Assembly (NCBI RefSeq): GCF_000025505.1
Contig: NC_013849.1
Location: 1,740,001-1,772,000 of the forward strand
Direction of reading: 5' to 3'
Length of the DNA stretch: 32,000 nucleotides
Source of the DNA: Ferroglobus placidus DSM 10642
GTDB lineage: Archaea; Halobacteriota; Archaeoglobi; Archaeoglobales; Archaeoglobaceae
Shown: positions 5,606-28,435 of the stretch, piece after piece
Layout: every line of letters begins with the position of its first letter
Numbering within the stretch: position 1 is the first letter of the stretch
Notes under the pieces: model-generated
What the model was told of the DNA's origin: nothing
The model's database searches: none
The model's input: the letters and a program-made list of their open reading frames with translations, nothing else
Translations under genes and position numbers: made by a program

Positions 5606-6592
5606 TCATGAAGAAGTTTCTTGATTTGGATCTTCACCCTTAACGATTTTTGCGACGAAAAAACCTGAGCAGCGATGCTTGTGCGGATAAAGCCTCTTAG
5701 CTTTTCTCAACTCGGAGCTGAGTTTGACGTCTCCGATTTTCGTCAAAGCCTCTTCTCCGAATTTAACTTCTTCGAGTCTTATTTCGAAGTTTTTTAGAGC
5801 CCAGTCTATTACGAATTCGTTTTCCTCCGGAGTTAGGGAGCAAGTAGAGTAGATTAGCACTCCTCCGGGCTTTAAAGACTTTATTCCCGCTTCGAGCATT
5901 TGCTTTTGGAGGGAGGTGCAGAACAGTATGTCCTTCACCCCTCTGCTCCACTTTCTCGTAGGATCTTTATGTATTATCCCCTCTCCAGTGCACGGGGCGT
6001 CGAGGAGGATTTTGTCTGCTTTAATTCCGAGGTTGTGAAATTTTGCGGAGTTCATTCTTAATACAATCGCGTTCATGACGCCCATTCTGTGGATGTTGTC
6101 TATCAGCGGAGGTATTCTCTCCTCGTTGCCCTCTATGGCAATTAGGACTCCTTTGTTTTTCATCAGCATAGAAATCATCGTCGCTTTTCCTCCCGGAGAG
6201 GCTGCCATGTCCACAACGAGATCGCTCTCTTTCGGATTTAGCTCAATTGGCGGTATGCACGAGCTTTTGTCCATGACGTAGTAGTATCCCATGAGAAATT
6301 CCGGAGTAGCTCCTATGCTGTAAGGTTCCTCAACAACCTCGTAGCAGAAGGGGACTTCCGTCTTATTTAAAACAAAGCCTCTCTCTTCAAGCCTCTCAAC
6401 GAGTTCATCCTCGCTTATTTTTATCGTGTTAACCCTTATGTACTTCGGAACTTTTTCCATTCCCTCGACGAGTTTTGCAGCTTCCTCTTCTCCGAAAATG
6501 TTTACCCACCTTCTGATTATGAACTCGTCGTAGCCGTACTTTTTCGCAAGCCTCTTCGAAAAATCTGTGGAAGGAAAATCAAGAACTCTCAT
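5606..6592 (-). CDS. NOL1/NOP2/Sun-family RNA (cytosine-C5)-methyltransferase
   Basis: SAM motif 'VVDMAASPGGKAT', catalytic 'DAPCTGEG' and 'YSTCSLTPEENE'. Confidence 0.85.
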   Translation of the reverse strand: MRVLDFPSTDFSKRLAKKYGYDEFIIRRWVNIFGEEEAAKLVEGMEKVPKYIRVNTIKISEDELVERLEERGFVLNKTEVPFCYEVVEEPYSIGATPEFLMGYYYVMDKSSCIPPIELNPKESDLVVDMAASPGGKATMISMLMKNKGVLIAIEGNEERIPPLIDNIHRMGVMNAIVLRMNSAKFHNLGIKADKILLDAPCTGEGIIHKDPTRKWSRGVKDILFCTSLQKQMLEAGIKSLKPGGVLIYSTCSLTPEENEFVIDWALKNFEIRLEEVKFGEEALTKIGDVKLSSELRKAKRLYPHKHRCSGFFVAKIVKGEDPNQETSS

Positions 6593-18120: not shown

Positions 18121-18504
18121 TTAGTCATAGTCGCAGGAAACGACGGGAATGCTCACTTCGATCTCATCGTAGGGAACGACAGGAACCTTTCTTCTCCTCT
18201 TACCTTTTTTCTCTTCCACGAATTTGACGAGTCCGAGCATTTCGAGAATTTCCAGATCCTTGATCACGTTCCTCCTGTTCCTCCCCAACAACTTAGCCAG
18301 TTCGTAAACGCTTTTCGGATTCTTCTCTTTTATCACGTGCAGAATCTTCAACCTTTCCGGAGTCAGAATTTTTCTGAGCGCTTCGTAACTCTCGAAAACG
18401 ATTCTCTCGAACTCCACATCCTCTCCTTCATCGATTCTCCTCGCTACCTCCAAAAGTTCCTCCCTACTATCTCTCCTCCCGATCTCAATCCTCAACTTTA
18501 CCAT
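18121..18504 (-). CDS. HTH DNA-binding protein, putative antitoxin partner
   Basis: 'LTPERLKILHVIKEKNPKSVYELAKLLGRNRRNVIKDLEILEMLGLVKF' is a wHTH. The ATG at 18504 overlaps the 3' end of the upstream toxin-like frame. Confidence 0.6.
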   Translation of the reverse strand: MVKLRIEIGRRDSREELLEVARRIDEGEDVEFERIVFESYEALRKILTPERLKILHVIKEKNPKSVYELAKLLGRNRRNVIKDLEILEMLGLVKFVEEKKGKRRRKVPVVPYDEIEVSIPVVSCDYD

Positions 18505-18799
18505 ACAGCACCTCCTCCACGATTTTAACATCCTCGAAGAACCTCTCAATCAGCTTTTCGACGCTTTCAAACTCTATTCCCTCCTCTTTATCGAAGAAGT
18601 GTCTGTGGTGTCCTTATCCCCTTTCGTTGTCGTAGCCGAGAACTCTCCTGTAGCTTTCGCCTTCAACGTGAACGTAAGCCATCGAGTACTTCACACCTCG
18701 GGAAAATCCTCGGACTTCGGAACCCTTCAAATATTGATCCGAATAATGTCCCCATGATCGTTGACCTCCTTGTAATCCACGAGCAATTTTGCCATTCAA
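18485..18799 (-). pseudogene. DUF6516-like putative toxin gene interrupted by an in-frame TAA
   Basis: The frame reads '...KYSMAYVHVEGESYRRVLGYDNERG*GHHRHFFDKEEGIEFESVEKLIERFFEDV...'. The stop (18614..18616) sits between the 'YDN' and 'HHRH' halves of the family motif, and the reading frame continues for 42 more codons. Confidence 0.5.
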
Positions 18800-18853
18800 T
18801 ATGTGTTATGTAAGCACACATATTTAAAGCTATCGAGTTTAGGCAGCTCCCCC

Positions 18854-18892
18854 TCGTTATCACCTTAGAACTCGCTAAGGTTTTGGTGCAAA
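18854..18892. repeat. Copy 1 of a perfect 39-bp direct repeat (TCGTTATCACCTTAGAACTCGCTAAGGTTTTGGTGCAAA)
   Basis: Identical to 20196..20234. It contains the hairpin ACCTTAG-aactcg-CTAAGGT followed by TTT. Confidence 0.95.
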
Positions 18893-18925
18893 CCTTTTTA
18901 TTCTTAAAAAAGGGTAAGAGAGGAT

Positions 18926-19930
18926 TTGTGGAGGAAATTGAAGCAAATTGCTGAATCTCTGAACGCCAACATTTCAGATCTACTCGAAACGAAGATTATC
19001 GAGCTAATAGCAGTTTACGAATCGTTTTTGGGAACGGGCCGGGAGGGATTTGAACCCCCGACCGCGGGATTAAGAGTCCGTCAGAGCTTCGTTTCCTTTG
19101 ACCTCCGTGAATTTTACTCCAAACACGAATCGGAGTTCAGAGAATGGCTCTACGGTAGAATGTCCAAGAAATCCGCTGATCAGTATTTGAGCGCCATAAA
19201 AAGGTATTTACCTCACGGAGTTAGCGAACCGAAAGACCTCGACCGTTTAGTGACGAAAACCAAGTACCTCCCCTTAGGAATAAGGAATTTCTTAAACTTC
19301 CTCGAAGATCAGTACTACATGGACAACCTTGGGGGATTCAGCTTCGCCATATGGAGGAAGCACTTACCGACGAAAACCGGAAACAAGAAAGGAGAAAAGA
19401 TCTTCTTGACCGATAAGGACGTCGTGAAATGCTTTAAGCTGATAAAAGAAAAGTGGAACGACGAAGTAACGATAAACCTCTACAAACTCCTCGTATTCTC
19501 GGGGATAAGACTTGAACATGCTTACAGACTCCTCGAAAGCTTCGATAAACGAAAACTGATAATAGAGGGTAAAGTAGCCATGTATCCGATCGAGGAAATT
19601 ACGAAAGGACATAAGAAGGGTTACTTTGCTTTCCTACCGGCGGAATTTGCCAGAAAGTTGGAAAAATATGACATGATGAAACTCGCAGCCTACAAAAGCA
19701 GATTAACTCCTAAACAATGGAAGCCACCGGTTGACAGTCCGGTTTCCCCGATTAGAATTAGAGCGTGGTTCCAGAACTTCGCCATCGAGCATGGAGTGAA
19801 GACCGAAGCTCTTCGCTTCATTGTCGGACATTCCCCGGCAACCGTCGGAGAAGCTCACTACTACAACCTCAAGAAGATCGCTAAGGAGGAGTACAAGAAG
19901 ATCGTGGACAAGTTCCCAATACCACCTTGA
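18926..19930 (+). CDS. int: SSV-type tyrosine recombinase; chimeric ORF of a foreign int(N)-like remnant, attL and int(C) of the resident element
   Basis: 334-aa ORF with a TTG start. The C-terminal 'IRIRAWFQNF...LRFIVGHSPATVGEAHYY' is a tyrosine-recombinase catalytic region. Codons 36-52 are the tRNA-derived att sequence 'GTGREGFEPPTAGLRV'. Confidence 0.8.
   Translation: MWRKLKQIAESLNANISDLLETKIIELIAVYESFLGTGREGFEPPTAGLRVRQSFVSFDLREFYSKHESEFREWLYGRMSKKSADQYLSAIKRYLPHGVSEPKDLDRLVTKTKYLPLGIRNFLNFLEDQYYMDNLGGFSFAIWRKHLPTKTGNKKGEKIFLTDKDVVKCFKLIKEKWNDEVTINLYKLLVFSGIRLEHAYRLLESFDKRKLIIEGKVAMYPIEEITKGHKKGYFAFLPAEFARKLEKYDMMKLAAYKSRLTPKQWKPPVDSPVSPIRIRAWFQNFAIEHGVKTEALRFIVGHSPATVGEAHYYNLKKIAKEEYKKIVDKFPIPP
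19031..19079. repeat. attL: 49-bp copy of the tRNA-Lys 3' part
   Basis: Base-for-base identical to 27663..27711 (GGAACGGGCCGGGAGGGATTTGAACCCCCGACCGCGGGATTAAGAGTCC). Confidence 0.95.
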
Positions 19931-20195
19931 GATTCAAGCTTCCGTTCATTCCTCACAACCAAGAGTTTGAGCTTATTGATCTGTTGATATACGAGGCTAA
20001 GAGGTGGTGGACATATGCAAGCTTCATCACAGTCTTTTTGAGGTCCAATGGCAGTTCCTACGATGAAAACGGTATACCGCAAAACAAGGACTCGAGTCCT
20101 GAGACAAACAGTATACCATTTCTTCCACCAAATCTCAACGAGAAAACCAGAGGAAAACACGCGAACTGCCCTACCTTTTTCCCTTTGTTACCCCT

Positions 20196-20234
20196 TCGTT
20201 ATCACCTTAGAACTCGCTAAGGTTTTGGTGCAAA
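20196..20234. repeat. Copy 2 of the perfect 39-bp direct repeat
   Basis: Identical to 18854..18892. It lies 266 nt downstream of the int stop. Confidence 0.95.
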
Positions 20235-20538
20235 ACTCGACTCTGATCAATATCGATAAACGTGCATGTTGAAAAATATAGATAAATCCATACATATATG
20301 CCGAGAGTCGGAACTAATCTACGAAAATATAATAATAGGCTTAAATATTTTGCAAATTGGCATAAAGGCTCGAATCGGTAAAGCTTTTAACGTTCAGGCT
20401 ATAATAAGCTATTGAACATAAAAGCTATTGAATAAAAATTATAAAATTCTTTTTATATTATTCAACTCTGCGATAAATTTTTAAGAATCTGGCTCTAATG
20501 TTTAATGATCTTGTGTTTGGCAAGGAGGTGAGAACCGG

Positions 20539-20799
20539 GTGTTCGGTAGGTTGAAGCTTGCCTGGAGAATATACAAAGCTTACATGCAGTTCGTCAAGGA
20601 GACCAAGGGTGAAATGACGCTCGTGGACTGGATCAAAGGAGTCATCATACTTTCGGTGCTCGGAGTCGGTGTCGGCTTGCCGATCGTGATAAAGACGATT
20701 CAGAGCGTGAACATCACAGACCCAACGACGTCGCTCGTCGTGAACTTCATTCCAGCTATCGTTGCCGTGGCTTTGCTTCTCGGCTACCTCGGGAGATAG
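20539..20799 (+). CDS. Small two-helix membrane protein, candidate spindle-virus-type major capsid protein
   Basis: GTG start 8 nt after AAGGAGGTGA. Two hydrophobic helices ('GVIILSVLGVGVGLPIVI' and 'LVVNFIPAIVAVALLLGYL') flank the polar loop 'KTIQSVNITDPTTS', which holds an N-x-T sequon. It is the only plus-strand gene in this part of the element. Confidence 0.6.
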   Translation: MFGRLKLAWRIYKAYMQFVKETKGEMTLVDWIKGVIILSVLGVGVGLPIVIKTIQSVNITDPTTSLVVNFIPAIVAVALLLGYLGR

Positions 20800-20835: not shown

Positions 20836-20851
20836 TTCTTTTCTCTTTTTT
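20836..20851 (+). terminator. Oligo-T tract (TTCTTTTCTCTTTTTT) downstream of the 86-aa gene
   Basis: A T-rich run about 35 nt after the stop. Archaeal termination typically uses oligo-T. Confidence 0.35.
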
Positions 20852-20957
20852 GTGCCGGTTGATAATATATTAAATTGAGGAAATATTCTGCAGATCTGCC
20901 TATCAATTCAATAAAAATATTAAAAACCTCGAAGTATTATGCGATTTTGCAACTTTG

Positions 20958-21200
20958 TCAAACCACCTCTCTCTCTTTCTCCCTCTTCCTTAGATGCCGT
21001 CCGTTGAATTTAGCTTCGATCAGATTCAAGAGCTTCTCCACAGCCTCGATAACCTTTTCCGGCTCTTCGCCGTCGAATCTTACGGAGATCTCTACTCCTC
21101 CACCATCCTCATTAATTCCGGCTTTGAGAACGACTTCCCGAACTGGATAATCCTCCTGAACAATCTCCTCAGCTTCTTCACCGGTTTCCTCCCTCCTCAT
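20958..21200 (-). CDS. Hypothetical acidic protein (80 aa), last gene of the element's minus-strand operon
   Basis: Its start overlaps the upstream stop by 4 nt. The opposite-strand ORFs are S/L-rich shadows. Confidence 0.45.
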   Translation of the reverse strand: MRREETGEEAEEIVQEDYPVREVVLKAGINEDGGGVEISVRFDGEEPEKVIEAVEKLLNLIEAKFNGRHLRKREKEREVV

Positions 21201-21364
21201 AGATATCCCCTCCTCCTTAGAAACTCCTCAAGAGCTAAGTTGATAGCGTCGGAGAGCTTCAAGCCGTTTCTTTTGATCGCATTCACAAGCTCTCTTTCAA
21301 TCCTCACCGTAGTTTTTACTCTGTCTTTTTTCTCCAGCTTGAGGAGTCTTTTTTTAGTTATCAT
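21197..21364 (-). CDS. Ribbon-helix-helix (CopG/Arc-like) protein
   Basis: 'VKTTVRIERELVNAIKRNGLKLSDAINLALEEFLRRRG' has the beta-strand plus two-helix RHH pattern. The ATG at 21364 overlaps the upstream stop (ATGA). Confidence 0.6.
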   Translation of the reverse strand: MITKKRLLKLEKKDRVKTTVRIERELVNAIKRNGLKLSDAINLALEEFLRRRGYL

Positions 21365-21555
21365 GCTTGAGCTTCTTTCAACCTCCTCATAACCGTCCAC
21401 TTTGAAACTTCGTAACCTAACTGGGTGAGCTTCCACGCTATCATCTCGTAACTGTAACCTTTAGCTCTCAACTCCTTAGCTAAGGAGATGGGGAAAGTTT
21501 TCGGCTTCCTTCCTCCTCTCTTGGTTAGAAGAATCTCAGCTTTCATTTTCACCAC
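21361..21555 (-). CDS. Small HTH protein (resolvase/Hin-like HTH)
   Basis: 'GRKPKTFPISLAKELRAKGYSYEMIAWKLTQLGYEVSKWTVMRRLKE'. Confidence 0.6.
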   Translation of the reverse strand: MVKMKAEILLTKRGGRKPKTFPISLAKELRAKGYSYEMIAWKLTQLGYEVSKWTVMRRLKEAQA

Positions 21556-21566
21556 CTCTAAAAAAA

Positions 21567-21794
21567 TTAGGGAGAAGAGGTTTCCTCTATTTCTTTGAGC
21601 TTCTTGTTAAACTCTTCAACTCTGGGAATGAACGCTTTTAAGCTTTTCAAATAGTCTAAGTCACTTTTCACGTTCTCTATGATGCACTCCTCTAGATATT
21701 CGGTAAAGTCTTTCCCTGCCCATTCGCAAAACTCTTTTACCAACTCGTACAGCTCTTTCGGAATTTCCAGCTCCACCTTCACCCTTTCTTCCAT
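21567..21794 (-). CDS. Hypothetical acidic helical protein (75 aa)
   Basis: An ORF within the co-directional operon. No motif recognised. Confidence 0.45.
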   Translation of the reverse strand: MEERVKVELEIPKELYELVKEFCEWAGKDFTEYLEECIIENVKSDLDYLKSLKAFIPRVEEFNKKLKEIEETSSP

Positions 21795-21811
21795 ACTACC
21801 ACCCCAAAGAA

Positions 21812-22018
21812 TTAAAGGTGAAGTTCGGCAGTGCTCAAAGCCTTCTTAAGCTCCTCGAAGCTCTCTGAATCCATTTCTAAGGTTATGCTGTTTCCGATTC
21901 TCAAAACTGCTTTGTCGCTGAATTTCTCGACGCTCACGCCCCCTTCATATACATAGACGCCGATCTCCGCCAAACCATCTTTTCCGCTCACTTCCAACTT
22001 CGCCTTAACCCATCTCAT
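21812..22018 (-). CDS. Hypothetical protein (68 aa)
   Basis: An ORF within the operon whose start overlaps the upstream stop by 4 nt. Confidence 0.45.
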   Translation of the reverse strand: MRWVKAKLEVSGKDGLAEIGVYVYEGGVSVEKFSDKAVLRIGNSITLEMDSESFEELKKALSTAELHL

Positions 22019-22236
22019 ACCTTCTCACCTCCTCTCCTTTTTCTTCCTCCCCTTTTAACGGGAGGAGCGTAATCCGGGCATATTTTAGCACGTCCGCAAC
22101 TCACGACAACTTTCCAACGGAAGCAGTAAACGTAACCGGGTGTTTCCGCTTTCGAAGATTCCAAACAGTTAAAGCAATTCTGTTTTGGCTTCTTCTCCCT
22201 CTTCTGCTTCCGAACAACCTTAACGGGAGAGATCAA
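22015..22236 (-). CDS. Basic Cys-rich (zinc-finger-like) protein (73 aa)
   Basis: 'CFNC...C...C...C' flanked by K/R-rich tails ('RKQKREKKPKQ' and 'KRGGRKRRGGEK'). Confidence 0.5.
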   Translation of the reverse strand: MISPVKVVRKQKREKKPKQNCFNCLESSKAETPGYVYCFRWKVVVSCGRAKICPDYAPPVKRGGRKRRGGEKV

Positions 22237-22242
22237 TGAAGC

Positions 22243-22482
22243 TCACCCACTAAGGTCGTATTCGATTTCTTCCGCTTCCTCCACCTTAGGTTTTGATTCC
22301 CGGACCCAGAAAGCACCTACTTCTTTCCATCCGTCTCCTTCCCTGATCACCAATCGAAAATCAGGCTGTGATTTGCTCGATTTCTTCTCGTTCTTGAAGA
22401 GAAACGCCTCCCTCTCCCCCAAAACTCCGAAATCCAGATATCCGGCTAAAAACTTCTTACCGTTTCCTCCCACCTCTACCAC
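22243..22482 (-). CDS. DUF736-like protein
   Basis: 'FLFKNEKKSSKSQPDFRLVIREGDGWKEVGAFWVRES' follows the DUF736 pattern (N..K.s..PDyRi....g.e.GAaW.k.s) as I recall it. The start is more likely the GTG at 22473, 6 nt after GGAGGTG. Confidence 0.45.
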   Translation of the reverse strand: MVEVGGNGKKFLAGYLDFGVLGEREAFLFKNEKKSSKSQPDFRLVIREGDGWKEVGAFWVRESKPKVEEAEEIEYDLSG

Positions 22483-22903
22483 CTCCTAAGGGGTTTTCCT
22501 CCCTTGAGGGAGGAGCTTGAGAGATGAAACGGGAGAAAATATACTCTCCGAACTCTTCAACGCTTCCGGAGAAGACGGGGAGAAGTTGAGAAGCCTTCAA
22601 AAAGGGAGAGGATTCAACTTTTTGAGAAGTGTCATACTCATAGAGTTTGACCTGATCTCCTTCCCTTTCGATGTAAAATAGGGGGACCCTCAAGCATCGA
22701 GCTATTTTTTTGAGAGTTACAGCTTGATAGCCTCTTATCCTCAGATGACCGTTCTTTTCCTCGAATATTGCCACTATTCTTGGACCTACTTCCAAAACTG
22801 CGTCGATGTTTGTTATGACGACCTTTCCGGATCTATCTTTGTAAGGCTGAAGAGCTTCCCAGAGGGTGTTTTCGATGTATTGACCGCAGTGAGGACACTT
22901 CAT
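22457..22903 (-). CDS. Zinc-ribbon protein with a possible PD-(D/E)xK nuclease-like core
   Basis: N-terminal 'CPHCGQ', then 'ITNIDAVLEVGPRIVAIFEEKNG' (D...E-x-K spacing), and a Gly/Arg-rich tail. Its ATG shares one nucleotide with the prim-pol stop. Confidence 0.5.
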   Translation of the reverse strand: MKCPHCGQYIENTLWEALQPYKDRSGKVVITNIDAVLEVGPRIVAIFEEKNGHLRIRGYQAVTLKKIARCLRVPLFYIEREGDQVKLYEYDTSQKVESSPFLKASQLLPVFSGSVEEFGEYIFSRFISQAPPSREENPLGGGRGGRKR

Positions 22904-25932: not shown

Positions 25933-25999
25933 GAAGTTACTCACACTTTGAAGAAATTTGGATAACAATATTTAAATACTTTTCGATGTGAGTAACTTC
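25933..25999. promoter_or_regulatory. Divergent promoter/operator: a 13-bp perfect inverted repeat (GAAGTTACTCACA / TGTGAGTAACTTC) flanking the TATA box TTTAAATA (25971..25978)
   Basis: The repeat arms are at 25933..25945 and 25987..25999. The TATA box lies 22 nt upstream of the ATG at 26000. Confidence 0.55.
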
Positions 26000-26572
26000 A
26001 TGAGTCGAGAAACTATAGGGTTGATTGTTGAAGCTTTATCAGAAGGTCCTAGGGGGTGGAAAGAGTTAAAGGAAAGAACTGGTCTTTCAGATGGGACTTT
26101 AGCCAAGTATTTAAAAAAATTAATTGAAGAAGGTCTCATATCAGAAGAGATTGATAAAAAAGATCGAAGAAAGAAAATCTACAAGCTAATACCCACTGAA
26201 AAAACGTTTGAGTTATCTTTGCAAAGAGTTATTGCTAAACTATTTTTGATTTATTTAAGGTCAGTTTTGGAAGAAAATGAAAAGATGGAAGACCTTGAGA
26301 GAAAAACTGGTAAAATTGTTTTGATCTGCCTCTTTGGAGGCGATAGAGGTAAGGAAATCTGCAGAATTATGGTGGAAAACTTCCAAGAATTTATGAAGGA
26401 CTTAGAGAGCGATATTCCTGAACGTTACAATAGAGAGTTTAATGAATTATGGGAAGACTTCTCTAAAGAAATAATGGAGTTGTTTAAATCTGAACTCAGA
26501 ATAGATCCCAAACTTCTCGATCCTAAGAAGTATTGGATAAGGTTCGACATAGATACTACTGAAGATGACTAA
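26000..26572 (+). CDS. Winged-HTH (MarR/ArsR-like) regulator with a C-terminal helical domain
   Basis: 'GPRGWKELKERTGLSDGTLAKYLKKLIEEGLISEEIDKKDRRKKIYKLIP'. The ATG at 26000 is favoured as a leaderless start; the track begins at the GTG at 25988. Confidence 0.7.
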   Translation: MSRETIGLIVEALSEGPRGWKELKERTGLSDGTLAKYLKKLIEEGLISEEIDKKDRRKKIYKLIPTEKTFELSLQRVIAKLFLIYLRSVLEENEKMEDLERKTGKIVLICLFGGDRGKEICRIMVENFQEFMKDLESDIPERYNREFNELWEDFSKEIMELFKSELRIDPKLLDPKKYWIRFDIDTTEDD

Positions 26573-27008: not shown

Positions 27009-27227
27009 ATGCAAGAAGCGAAGGTGAAGGAAGTCATCTTCCTTGTCGAGGAGACGGATGAAGGATTTACGGCGAGGGCTTTAGATTACTCGATCTACAC
27101 TGAAGCCGATACGCTTGATGAGCTAAAGGAAATGATCAAGGATGCCGTGAAATGCCATTTTGATGAAGAGGAGAGACCGAGAATCATCCGACTTCACATC
27201 GTTAAGCAAGAGGTTTTGACGTTATGA
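27009..27227 (+). CDS. hicB: HicB-like antitoxin
   Basis: 'VIFLVEETDEGFTARALDYSIYTEADTLDELKEMIKDAVKCHF' matches the HicB N-terminal fold pattern. It overlaps hicA by 4 nt. Confidence 0.7.
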   Translation: MQEAKVKEVIFLVEETDEGFTARALDYSIYTEADTLDELKEMIKDAVKCHFDEEERPRIIRLHIVKQEVLTL

Positions 27228-27466
27228 AGCTTCCGAGAGACATTAGCGGTCTGGAACTTGCGAAACTCCTTAGGAAATTCGGTTACGAAATTACAAGACA
27301 GACTGGAAGCCACATTCGTCTTACTACCCGTTTGAAGGGAGAACATCACATCACGATCCCGAAACATAGAAATCTCAAACCGGGAACGTTAAACGCCATT
27401 TTGAAGGATGTTGCCGATCATTTAAGAATCGATAAAAAGGAACTGATACGGGAATTGTTCGGATAG
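27224..27466 (+). CDS. hicA: HicA-family mRNA interferase toxin
   Basis: 'LELAKLLRKFGYEITRQTGSHIRLTT...HHITIPKHRNLKPGTLNAILKDV' carries the HicA/YcfA signature, including GSH and P.H..L..GTL..IL. Confidence 0.8.
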   Translation: MKLPRDISGLELAKLLRKFGYEITRQTGSHIRLTTRLKGEHHITIPKHRNLKPGTLNAILKDVADHLRIDKKELIRELFG

Positions 27467-27503: not shown

Positions 27504-27662
27504 ATGCCCCGTCAAAGTCAGGACAAGGTGAAATTAACATTAACCATAAATAAAAACGTTCTCGAACGAGCTAAGGAATTAATCCCCAACCTTAGCGCCT
27601 TCGTCGAAATGAAGCTTCGAGAATACGTAATTTTGGCAGAACACGGGTTATTCGACGAAAAT
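27504..27662 (+). CDS. int: int(N): N-terminal fragment of the element's partitioned integrase (RHH-like), reading into attR and the tRNA
   Basis: 'VKLTLTINKNVLERAKELIPNLSAFVEMKLREYV', then the att-encoded 'GTGREGFEPPTAGLRV'. Codon 54 starts exactly at att, the same phase as at attL. Confidence 0.75.
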
Positions 27663-27711
27663 GGAACGGGCCGGGAGGGATTTGAACCCCCGACCGCGGG
27701 ATTAAGAGTCC
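27663..27711. repeat. attR: 49-bp repeat (4 nt plus the 3'-terminal 45 nt of tRNA-Lys)
   Basis: Identical to 19031..19079. Confidence 0.95.
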
Positions 27712-27740
27712 CGCGCTCTACCTGGCTAAGCTACCGGCCC
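27667..27740 (-). tRNA. tRNA-Lys (anticodon CUU), 74 nt, no encoded CCA
   Basis: The hand-folded cloverleaf is GGGCCGG / GCTT-GAGC / CGGGA-CTCTTAA-TCCCG / GGGGG-TTCAAAT-CCCTC / CCGGCCC-G. The anticodon loop CT-CTT-AA gives CUU. Confidence 0.9.
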
Positions 27741-27798
27741 ACTAAAAACTAAGCTCGTTTCTCGATTTATCAAGTTTTTGGTAATTGAAAAAGCCCTG

Positions 27799-28435
27799 TC
27801 AACTTAACCACCTCAGATGATTGTAATAGAGCATGAAGAGTTTGCAGAATAGATTCCAGTTTTTAATTGGATTTTTAGTGGAAATCGAACAGAAGAACAG
27901 CTTAACTCTCTGTTTAAATGAGCTGAACGTCGCTTCAACCAGACTTCTCTTTCCGAAAGGTTTCATGCTTAAATTCCAAGCCTAAACTTTCTATTGCTTT
28001 TCTCAGCCATGGTGCTTTGTCTATCAAAAACTTGGGTTCGTTCTCGCAGTAATTAAGAACTTCTTTGACGAAAGACCTTGCTGTAAGAATGTTTCTCGTC
28101 GTGTAAACCCTCATTAAAATCAGCTCGTTCCTTTCAACGTCTACCGCGGCAAAAATGTAGAACTTCTTTTTGTTAGCTTTGACAATCGTTTCATCTATTG
28201 CAACAAGATTTCTCCGCTTCTTCTCAGTAGAAATTGGTAACTTCTCTTCAAACTTCTTTATCCATTTCCACACAGCCGTATGGGAGACCGGACGAAACTC
28301 CGAGAGAATTTTAACCGTTCTCCTCGTCGAAGAAGTTTGAACGTAAGTGGCTACGCCAAGAATTCTAATGTCGTTCGGAACTCTTTCCCTCTCAAACAAC
28401 TCAAGCTCCTCTATAAGCTTCTTCAACTTCATCAA
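27799..28435 (-). pseudogene. IS6-family DDE transposase, frameshifted
   Basis: 'LVAIDETIVKANKKKFYIFAAVDVERNELI...FLIDKAPWLRKAIESLGLEFKHETF', then a stop. Another frame continues 'GKRSLVEATFSSFKQRVKLFF...', the conserved E-containing C-terminus. The frame switch is near 27950..27956. I could not define terminal inverted repeats. Confidence 0.7.

Follow-up and report, generated by a model that had tools for sequence, protein, structure and literature searches.

The plasmids pSSVx and pSSVi are satellites of Sulfolobus fuselloviruses and spread only with a helper fusellovirus. In haloarchaea and nanohaloarchaea, elements named SRCEs, i.e. circles of 2.7-9.0 kb that carry genes for a spindle-virus capsid protein and/or ATPase together with a plasmid replicase, have also been interpreted as satellites (bioRxiv 10.1101/2025.02.15.638363). 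As for Archaeoglobi, no virus was described until 2024, the first being the pleomorphic AvPV1 (PMC10919331). Here we analyse a stretch of 32,000 nucleotides (hereafter, the window; all positions without a contig or locus name count from its first letter) of the archaeon Ferroglobus placidus DSM 10642 (NC_013849.1, positions 1,740,001 to 1,772,000), in which the gene Ferp_2039 is the sole structural gene on an 8.6-kb integrative plasmid in tRNA-Lys(CTT). Its product very probably belongs, by homology, to the capsid family of spindle-shaped viruses. The best overall explanation of the locus, a capsid homologue on a satellite-type plasmid, has in our judgement about an even chance of being correct.

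The element is like the SRCEs in being small (8.6 kb) and in combining a plasmid replication protein (those of SRCEs include primase-helicases) with a spindle-virus gene while the rest of the virion module is absent. It is unlike them in being integrated via an integrase of the type found in Sulfolobus spindle-shaped viruses (SSV), in having a capsid gene without an ATPase gene, and in its hyperthermophilic host; it is also unlike them in having neither a co-occurring helper virus nor a link through clustered regularly interspaced short palindromic repeats (CRISPR) on record. With pSSVx and pSSVi it shares a pRN/pORA1-type primase-helicase replicon and, in the case of pSSVi, also an SSV-type integrase targeting a tRNA gene, but neither plasmid encodes a capsid protein, and pSSVx has two other SSV genes, including the ATPase. 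Both the capsid family and the satellite concept were already known: what is new is the host lineage, the integrated state with a capsid gene, and the evidence for gene capture. SRCE satellites of haloarchaea are known from metagenomes only, and the capsid-only plasmid held by cultured F. placidus DSM 10642 would be their hyperthermophilic, integrated counterpart. We found no description of this element or of its capsid gene in the literature searched; the element may already be catalogued as integrated.

Ferp_2039 and its likeness to fusellovirus VP1

The gene and the signals around it are the following:

20539..20799, + strand: Ferp_2039, probable VP1-type capsid protein homologue of 86 amino acids (aa), from its open reading frame (ORF), searches, profiles and an AlphaFold model
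20522..20531, + strand: Shine-Dalgarno sequence AAGGAGGTGA, 7 nt 5' of the GTG start
20238..20538, + strand: intergenic, AT-rich (about 29-31% GC), presumed to hold the promoter for the capsid gene
about 20836..20855, + strand: T-rich run CTTCTTTTCTCTTTTTTGTG 3' of the stop, possible archaeal oligo-T terminator

The ORF opens with GTG at 20539 and closes with the stop codon at 20797-20799. Its product has the sequence given in the original prediction and agrees at 100% identity with Ferp_2039 of F. placidus DSM 10642, a hyperthermophile of the Archaeoglobales. Because a word-indexed search with this single sequence returned no relative beyond Ferp_2039 itself, an exhaustive search was needed; with phmmer, it yielded 17 homologous clusters (E 2e-20 to 9e-4), showing that Ferp_2039 is a real gene. 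The protein is composed, in this order, of a short basic N-terminal helix, the motif K-G-E (residues 23-25), a hydrophobic helix, a loop with the sequon N-I-T, and a second hydrophobic helix. Its hydrophobic segments comprise residues 26-55 and 62-86 (Kyte-Doolittle, 19-residue windows >1.6), while the AlphaFold2 model (mean predicted local distance difference test, pLDDT, of 85.3) places helices at residues 2-22, 28-56 and 62-84, the last of them broken at P72, that is, a leader helix followed by a helical hairpin. ORF, hydropathy and modelled helices agree in this way with the original prediction, made from the letters of the sequence, of a two-helix protein of 86 aa at 20539-20799. The loop sequon that had been pointed out is also there, and an N-x-S/T sequon is found at this place in 75 of the 86 family members; a [KR][GA][EQ..] motif N-terminal to helix 1 is found in 70 of them. 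Ferp_2039 retains every position conserved in the family (W31, G42, G44, P48, P72, K-G-E, and the sequon), and its N-terminal leader is far shorter than those of virus-encoded homologues.

The gene had been credited with the strongest Shine-Dalgarno sequence in the element, an AT-rich upstream region of its own, and an oligo-T terminator. The first of these claims stands only in part: AAGGAGGTGA is strong, yet it is not unique, for it ties with an equal core, GAGGAGGTGA, lying 5' of a minus-strand ORF of 68 aa with its start at 22018. The upstream region is as described, with 28.9% GC over the 280 nt at 20250-20529, a value in the lowest 0.1% of the 280-nt windows in the whole stretch, and with TATA-like runs in the presumed promoter region. 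As for the terminator, there is a T-rich run 3' of the stop, but a + strand scan for hairpin-plus-T (bacterial-type) terminators found none at this place, so that we infer an oligo-T terminator role for it.

The likeness to SSV1 VP1/VP3 that had led to the capsid proposal is real but remote, and is seen at profile level only. With the single sequence, neither tblastn against 50,697 phage and archaeal-virus records nor phmmer against the PDB gave, respectively, anything meaningful or any match. Family profiles searched against 177,635 distinct PDB sequences had as their top match 7xdi_A (E 1.2e-4 with an 18-sequence profile, 1.8e-5 with an 86-sequence profile), the 84-aa capsid protein of fusellovirus SSV19, which agrees with the SSV19 VP1 gene sequence. 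In a test set of 1,551 ORFs from SSV1, His1, PAV1, TPV1, APSV1 and the window, the best foreign match of the family profile was SSV1 VP1 (32.4 bits, E 4.7e-9). His1 VP21, to which the protein had also been likened, was indeed the next foreign match, yet a marginal one (10.4 bits, E 0.036). An hhalign comparison of the family with 12 fusellovirus VP1/VP3 proteins reached a probability of 89% (E 2.3e-6) over the 64 columns that extend from K-G-E to helix 2, and other alignments of the family gave 65% and 78%. The core of SSV1 VP1 scored 26.7 bits, while its shuffles (2,000 full and 2,000 block-preserving) scored at most 14 bits, and hence the similarity is not compositional. BLASTP placed K-G-E-M-T of Ferp_2039 on K-G-E-A-T of SSV1, the Glu of which we take to be the first residue of mature SSV1 VP1. 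At the structural level, the top PDB match of the Ferp_2039 model in Foldseek was again 7xdi_A (probability 0.87, template modelling scores 0.50/0.61, root-mean-square deviation 2.8 Å over 60 columns), with a weak E-value of 0.9.

Like VP1 of SSV1 and SSV19, then, Ferp_2039 is a small hydrophobic protein of helix-turn-helix form that has an N-terminal leader, a K-G-E that aligns with the site of VP1 maturation, a sequon in the loop and a conserved Pro in helix 2, and fusellovirus VP1 is its best match by profile, hhalign and Foldseek. It differs from fusellovirus VP1 in its low identity (only about 25-29%), in its shorter loop, and in falling below detection by PF06281 and PHROGs; its host is an Archaeoglobi euryarchaeon instead of a member of the Sulfolobales, and its gene stands alone on a plasmid backbone.

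Some of the results weigh against this homology. Neither Ferp_2039 nor 27 of its relatives matched the curated models PF06281 (VP1_VP3) and PF25665 (His1_capsid) or PHROGs 11172/5402 at E <= 1 (or <= 10); SSV1 VP1 and VP3, as a positive control, matched the curated capsid models strongly. A reverse search with the VP1/VP3 profile gave only ~4 bits to the Ferp_2039 subfamily. The Foldseek E-value of 0.9 for 7xdi_A belongs here too, as does the simplicity of the helical-hairpin fold, because of which a weak E-value is expected; a Foldseek search of the model against BFVD returned nothing informative. The silence of the curated models and the non-significant Foldseek E-value could be accounted for if Ferp_2039 were an ordinary small membrane protein, with two hydrophobic helices by chance and a convergent likeness to VP1. 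This explanation is largely refuted and retains very little probability, given that the profile matches are specific to VP1 among all PDB sequences, that shuffle controls remain far under the real score, and that homologues in other loci are set in a conserved neighbourhood with fusellovirus ATPase and VP2 and adjoined by a VP3-like paralogue, as detailed below.

A conjugative or Ced-type pilin was considered separately and discarded: there was no pilin among the PDB profile matches and no VirB4/HerA ATPase nearby.

Homologues in provirus modules of other archaea

Of the independent evidence for reading Ferp_2039 as a capsid protein, the strongest comes from the places that its homologues occupy in other genomes. 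A conserved operon that begins with the homologue is present in contigs of metagenome-assembled genomes (MAGs) from Archaeoglobaceae (L016), Hadarchaeota (L017) and other Archaeoglobi (L019, L020, L002 and L029), and in the chromosome of Archaeoglobus profundus DSM 5631 (L026). The homologue is followed by a protein of ~107 aa with three transmembrane segments (3-TM) and by proteins of ~130 aa, 235-265 aa and 127 aa. Also encoded in the operon are a P-loop ATPase (244-324 aa), a basic protein resembling VP2, and proteins of 700-900 aa, with a hydrophobic protein of ~80 aa between the two large ones. An SSV-type integrase gene is often directly upstream, and the order integrase, then capsid gene, is found in the virus loci L016, L017 and L026. 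Like SSV1 B251 (E 5e-101), the ATPases are members of phrog_5484 (E 1e-27 to 1e-37), and the basic protein clears the Pfam threshold for PF25632 (Fusello_VP2_Capsid). This signature AAA+ ATPase was found beside the homologue in L002, L016, L017, L019, L026 and L029; L020 has the same gene order, with no ATPase gene identified.

Homologues in Haloplanus and Halobacterium lie in proviruses that bear integrase and MCM genes, show an analogous gene order and encode a protein of 1,333-1,344 aa; in L006 and L007 the ATPase was assigned from gene order. The next gene in the haloarchaeal loci and in L029 (PF27730) encodes a paralogue with VP3 architecture, i.e. leaderless and with a long loop, and it matches two profiles, that of fusellovirus VP1/VP3 (E 2e-5) and that of the Ferp_2039 family (up to 34 bits):

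L006, 10360-10803: VP3-like paralogue (PF27730, UCP028589)
L007, 10361-10807: VP3-like paralogue (PF27730, UCP028589)
L029, 10393-10767: VP3-like paralogue (PF27730, UCP028589)

Relatives of Ferp_2039 are thus like fusellovirus VP1 in heading a structural operon and in having a VP3-like paralogue as next gene, which reproduces the VP1-then-VP3 arrangement of fuselloviruses. The sequence likeness to VP3 also suggests a function for PF27730, an uncharacterised Pfam family. Ordinary chromosomal homologues outside mobile elements were not seen.

With the A. profundus homologue (131 aa), Ferp_2039 shares 60% identity over 73 aa (E 7e-33), and a simple neighbour-joining tree places this homologue closest to it. 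The homologue is part of the following provirus:

CP001857, about 1,417,066-1,429,100 (A. profundus DSM 5631, L026): fusellovirus-like provirus of ~12 kb

Its genes include an SSV-type integrase, the 131-aa VP1-like protein, a B251-type ATPase, and proteins of 854 aa and 730 aa (Laminin_G_3); our searches for its att (attachment) sites and target tRNA found none. The F. placidus element resembles this provirus in its capsid protein, in the SSV-type integrase upstream and in a small ribbon-helix-helix (RHH) gene common to both. It is distinguished from it, and from the relatives in Archaeoglobi and Hadarchaeota MAGs, by their full module (3-TM protein, B251-type ATPase, VP2-like protein, and proteins of 730-895 aa) and by their lack of a primase-helicase. 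We considered whether the A. profundus locus might be the pleomorphic provirus ApPV1 and rejected this, since ApPV1 lies ~65 kb off, at 1,493,663-1,508,372, and differs in gene order and in the B251-type ATPase. No description of the fusellovirus-like provirus was found in the literature searched. Archaeoglobi and Hadarchaeota contain both the spindle-virus capsid family and complete proviruses of fusellovirus-like type, one of the latter in a cultured strain, A. profundus DSM 5631.

The hydrophobic protein of ~80 aa was located at:

L016, 16166-16408: ~80-aa hydrophobic protein
L017, 11735-11980: ~80-aa hydrophobic protein
L026, 14642-14884: ~80-aa hydrophobic protein
L008, 1112-1357: ~80-aa hydrophobic protein

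It was this protein that gave His1 VP21 its best phmmer match (E 0.005). VP21 (Halspiviridae, PF25665) has the two-helix architecture in common with Ferp_2039, but is nearer to this different paralogue of the provirus modules than to Ferp_2039. As a side observation, the ~80-aa protein opens with K-K-G-Q-F-T-I, which recalls signals of class III (prepilin-like). Its gene in L008, a short contig, lies directly 3' of that for an 86-aa capsid homologue, without a virus module. Short forms of 86 aa, from the same clade as Ferp_2039, are present in L008 and L028, and both contigs are without a virus module.

Two scans of the 2.9 million IMG/VR contigs found no close relative of the thermophilic capsid subfamily; the sole match, at 28% within a 342-aa ORF, was spurious. 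The thermophilic virus group bearing this capsid protein seems to be missing from the IMG/VR catalogue.

The plasmid that carries the gene and its possible helper

The F. placidus element is bounded by identical 49-nt direct repeats with a spacing of 8,632 bp. Besides the capsid gene, its features are:

19031..19079: attL, left 49-nt copy, duplicated 3' part of tRNA-Lys
19079..19930, + strand: SSV-type ('suicidal') integrase, C-terminal catalytic part (PF16795, 3e-39)
20958..22903, - strand: eight small genes (RHH/Arc-like, helix-turn-helix, zinc-ribbon and DUF736-like), no membrane protein among them, common to related plasmid contigs
22903..25551, - strand: primase-polymerase and helicase, 882 aa, plasmid-type replication protein (PF09250, 2e-29)
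25988..26572, + strand: winged-helix regulator, 194 aa, weak match to a Sulfolobus pRN plasmid regulator
27009..27466 (27009-27227; 27224-27466), + strand: putative HicB-HicA toxin-antitoxin pair
27504..27662, + strand: split integrase, N-terminal part (RHH/CcdA-like), reads into attR
27663..27711: attR, right 49-nt copy, inside the intact tRNA-Lys gene
27666..27741, - strand: tRNA-Lys(CTT), integration target

Integration has split the integrase gene, whose C-terminal part begins at attL and whose N-terminal part ends at attR, and the two att copies are 100% identical. Among plasmids, the primase-helicase best matches that of Sulfolobus neozealandicus pORA1 (33% identity with 96% coverage, E 3e-123), and more weakly those of pRN-type and Thermococcus plasmids and structures of pRN1 ORF904. 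Within the putative HicAB pair, the second ORF (27224-27466) matches a phrog_353 toxin (5.6e-13), while the first (27009-27227) has no family match and is called antitoxin by its position. The same backbone defines a family of integrative plasmids, seen in two metagenome contigs, L032 (Ga0256830_1004989) and L033 (Ga0180302_10003918), with six to seven small genes in common and with primase-helicases that are 77% (L032) and 69% (L033) identical to that of the F. placidus element. These contigs adjoin tRNA-Pro and tRNA-Ala genes, L033 being integrated at tRNA-Ala.

Ferp_2039 is the element's sole membrane protein and, because it is convergent with its neighbour genes, truly the 'lone' gene it had been said to be. 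No second member of the capsid family profile exists among the ORFs of the window, and the only counterparts of the virus module in these 32 kb are the integrase and one small RHH protein. As had also been noted, the element has no ATPase or large protein gene of the virus module: no ATPase, VP2-like, VP3-like or large virion protein accompanies Ferp_2039 in the window, and the element's sole NTPase is provided by the helicase portion of its replication protein. Regarding the type of element, the original prediction left several options. A plasmid-virus hybrid fits best, with its pORA1/pRN-like replicon and its backbone relatives L032 and L033, neither of which has a capsid gene in the available sequence; both contigs are incomplete, and absence of the gene elsewhere in them is unproven. 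A minimal autonomous provirus is unlikely.

On the reading we favour, the element would replicate by its pORA1/pRN-like primase-helicase and integrate and excise by the split SSV-type integrase, with the putative HicAB as addiction module. Ferp_2039 would enter the membrane as a helical hairpin, its short N-terminal leader being cleaved between Gly and Glu of the conserved K-G-E, which aligns with the SSV1 VP1 maturation site, and the loop Asn being glycosylated. The role in particles is a prediction, and so are processing and glycosylation, to which the motifs point. In the presence of a fusellovirus-like Archaeoglobi helper, the excised 8.6-kb circle would be packaged in small spindle-shaped particles made of the plasmid's own capsid protein and of helper proteins. 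Such a helper, of the type integrated in A. profundus, would provide the B251-type AAA+ ATPase and the VP3-like, VP2-like and large terminal proteins. Dependence on a helper is a proposal, and we consider a satellite lifestyle of the F. placidus element to have slightly less than an even chance.

Two observations speak against the element being a satellite. F. placidus is not among the 32 matches to the ATPase profile, one of which is from A. profundus, and no second F. placidus member of the capsid family was found; the searches for a helper in F. placidus were word-indexed and did not scan the whole genome, which makes this a weak negative.

As no helper provirus was detected in F. placidus, and as the element encodes no membrane protein besides the capsid protein, one could imagine a helper-free system in which the capsid protein and host membrane (with host glycosylation) suffice to wrap the 8.6-kb DNA into spindle- or vesicle-like transfer particles. 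The element would then be the smallest spindle-type 'virus' known and a living plasmid-virus intermediate. We regard this as highly improbable. Each complete relative retains the AAA+ ATPase and large terminal proteins beside the capsid gene, and capsid protein and ATPase together constitute the signature morphogenetic module (bioRxiv 10.1101/2025.02.15.638363).

A lone structural gene with strong expression signals, on an element without other particle genes and with a leader much shorter than in virus-encoded forms, might also serve interference or immunity: a membrane-borne copy of the capsid protein, kept by plasmid or host, would block the entry of incoming spindle-shaped viruses or poison their assembly. 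This seems improbable to us, as the literature searched gave no precedent and no defence genes are adjacent (assessed without a PADLOC search), and as Ferp_2039 is conserved along its whole mature length, which is what a functional capsid subunit would show. Since the F. placidus and A. profundus strains are cultivable, both helper-satellite packaging and the transition from plasmid to virus are directly testable.

An apparently hybrid integrase and the probable capture of the capsid gene

The integrase of the F. placidus element looks like a hybrid when its two parts are compared by sequence. Its N-terminal part is 47% identical to the L033 counterpart, while its C-terminal part most resembles integrases from the capsid-bearing proviruses and from TPV1 (34% identity for L017, 32% for L016, and 30% for TPV1) and is unrelated to the C-terminal recombinase of L033. 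Hybrid SSV-type integrases of a comparable kind have been documented (Badel et al., 2020; PMC7253208). Recombination with a fusellovirus-like virus at the att site probably brought the capsid gene and the C-terminal half of the integrase into the plasmid in one event. Given the viral order of integrase and then capsid gene, the simplest history is that a pORA1-like plasmid gained a segment comprising att, the integrase C-terminal part and the capsid gene. The hybrid integrase in this manner suggests a concrete route by which plasmids can obtain a capsid gene, namely recombination at a shared tRNA att site. The following features also lie near the integrase:

18121-18549, - strand: winged-helix gene, 142 aa (phrog_11214, 1.5e-23), beside the integrase fragment
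18849-18895: 47-nt repeat with palindrome CCTTAG-N6-CTAAGG
20191-20237, + strand: copy B of the 47-nt repeat

Left of attL, at 18926-19030, a truncated N-terminal piece of an integrase shares 57% identity with the corresponding end of the L017 virus integrase; it is fused in frame with the C-terminal part of the element's integrase and forms with it a chimeric ORF of 334 aa. This fragment and the winged-helix gene, both within 18121-19030, have the appearance of a remnant left by an earlier element at this tRNA-Lys; the window contains no third copy of att.

The same data raise the possibility that the capsid gene is a by-product of recombination, i.e. that it rode in with the virus-type integrase half at a shared tRNA att site and persists without a role, not yet decayed. 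The plasmid-like N-terminal and virus-like C-terminal parts of the integrase would fit this case, and so would the gene order of the L016, L017 and L026 loci, the older virus-type scar left of attL, and the failure of word-indexed searches to reveal a helper in F. placidus. Such a history sits poorly, however, with the intact ORF of Ferp_2039 and its full set of family-conserved positions, with the full Shine-Dalgarno sequence and the AT-rich upstream region of its own, and with the existence of 86-aa short forms of the same clade in L008 and L028 without a virus module. On balance we consider it rather unlikely, and retain the satellite-type plasmid as our preferred reading.

The copies of the 47-nt repeat are 96% identical and lie one on each side of the integrase ORF, copy B being placed between the integrase stop and the upstream region of the capsid gene. 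In L033, at about 6313-6350 and 3' of the recombinase gene, there is a further copy that has diverged (6 mismatches in 38); at the position corresponding to that of Ferp_2039, between this copy and the RHH gene, the contig encodes no capsid protein. A structured RNA was rejected as an explanation of the repeat, there being no Rfam match and folding being no better than that of shuffles (z -0.62). The repeat may be a protein-binding site. Directly right of the tRNA-Lys target, at 27935-28435 on the minus strand, lies a 166-aa ORF that has the appearance of an insertion sequence (IS)-type transposase fragment.

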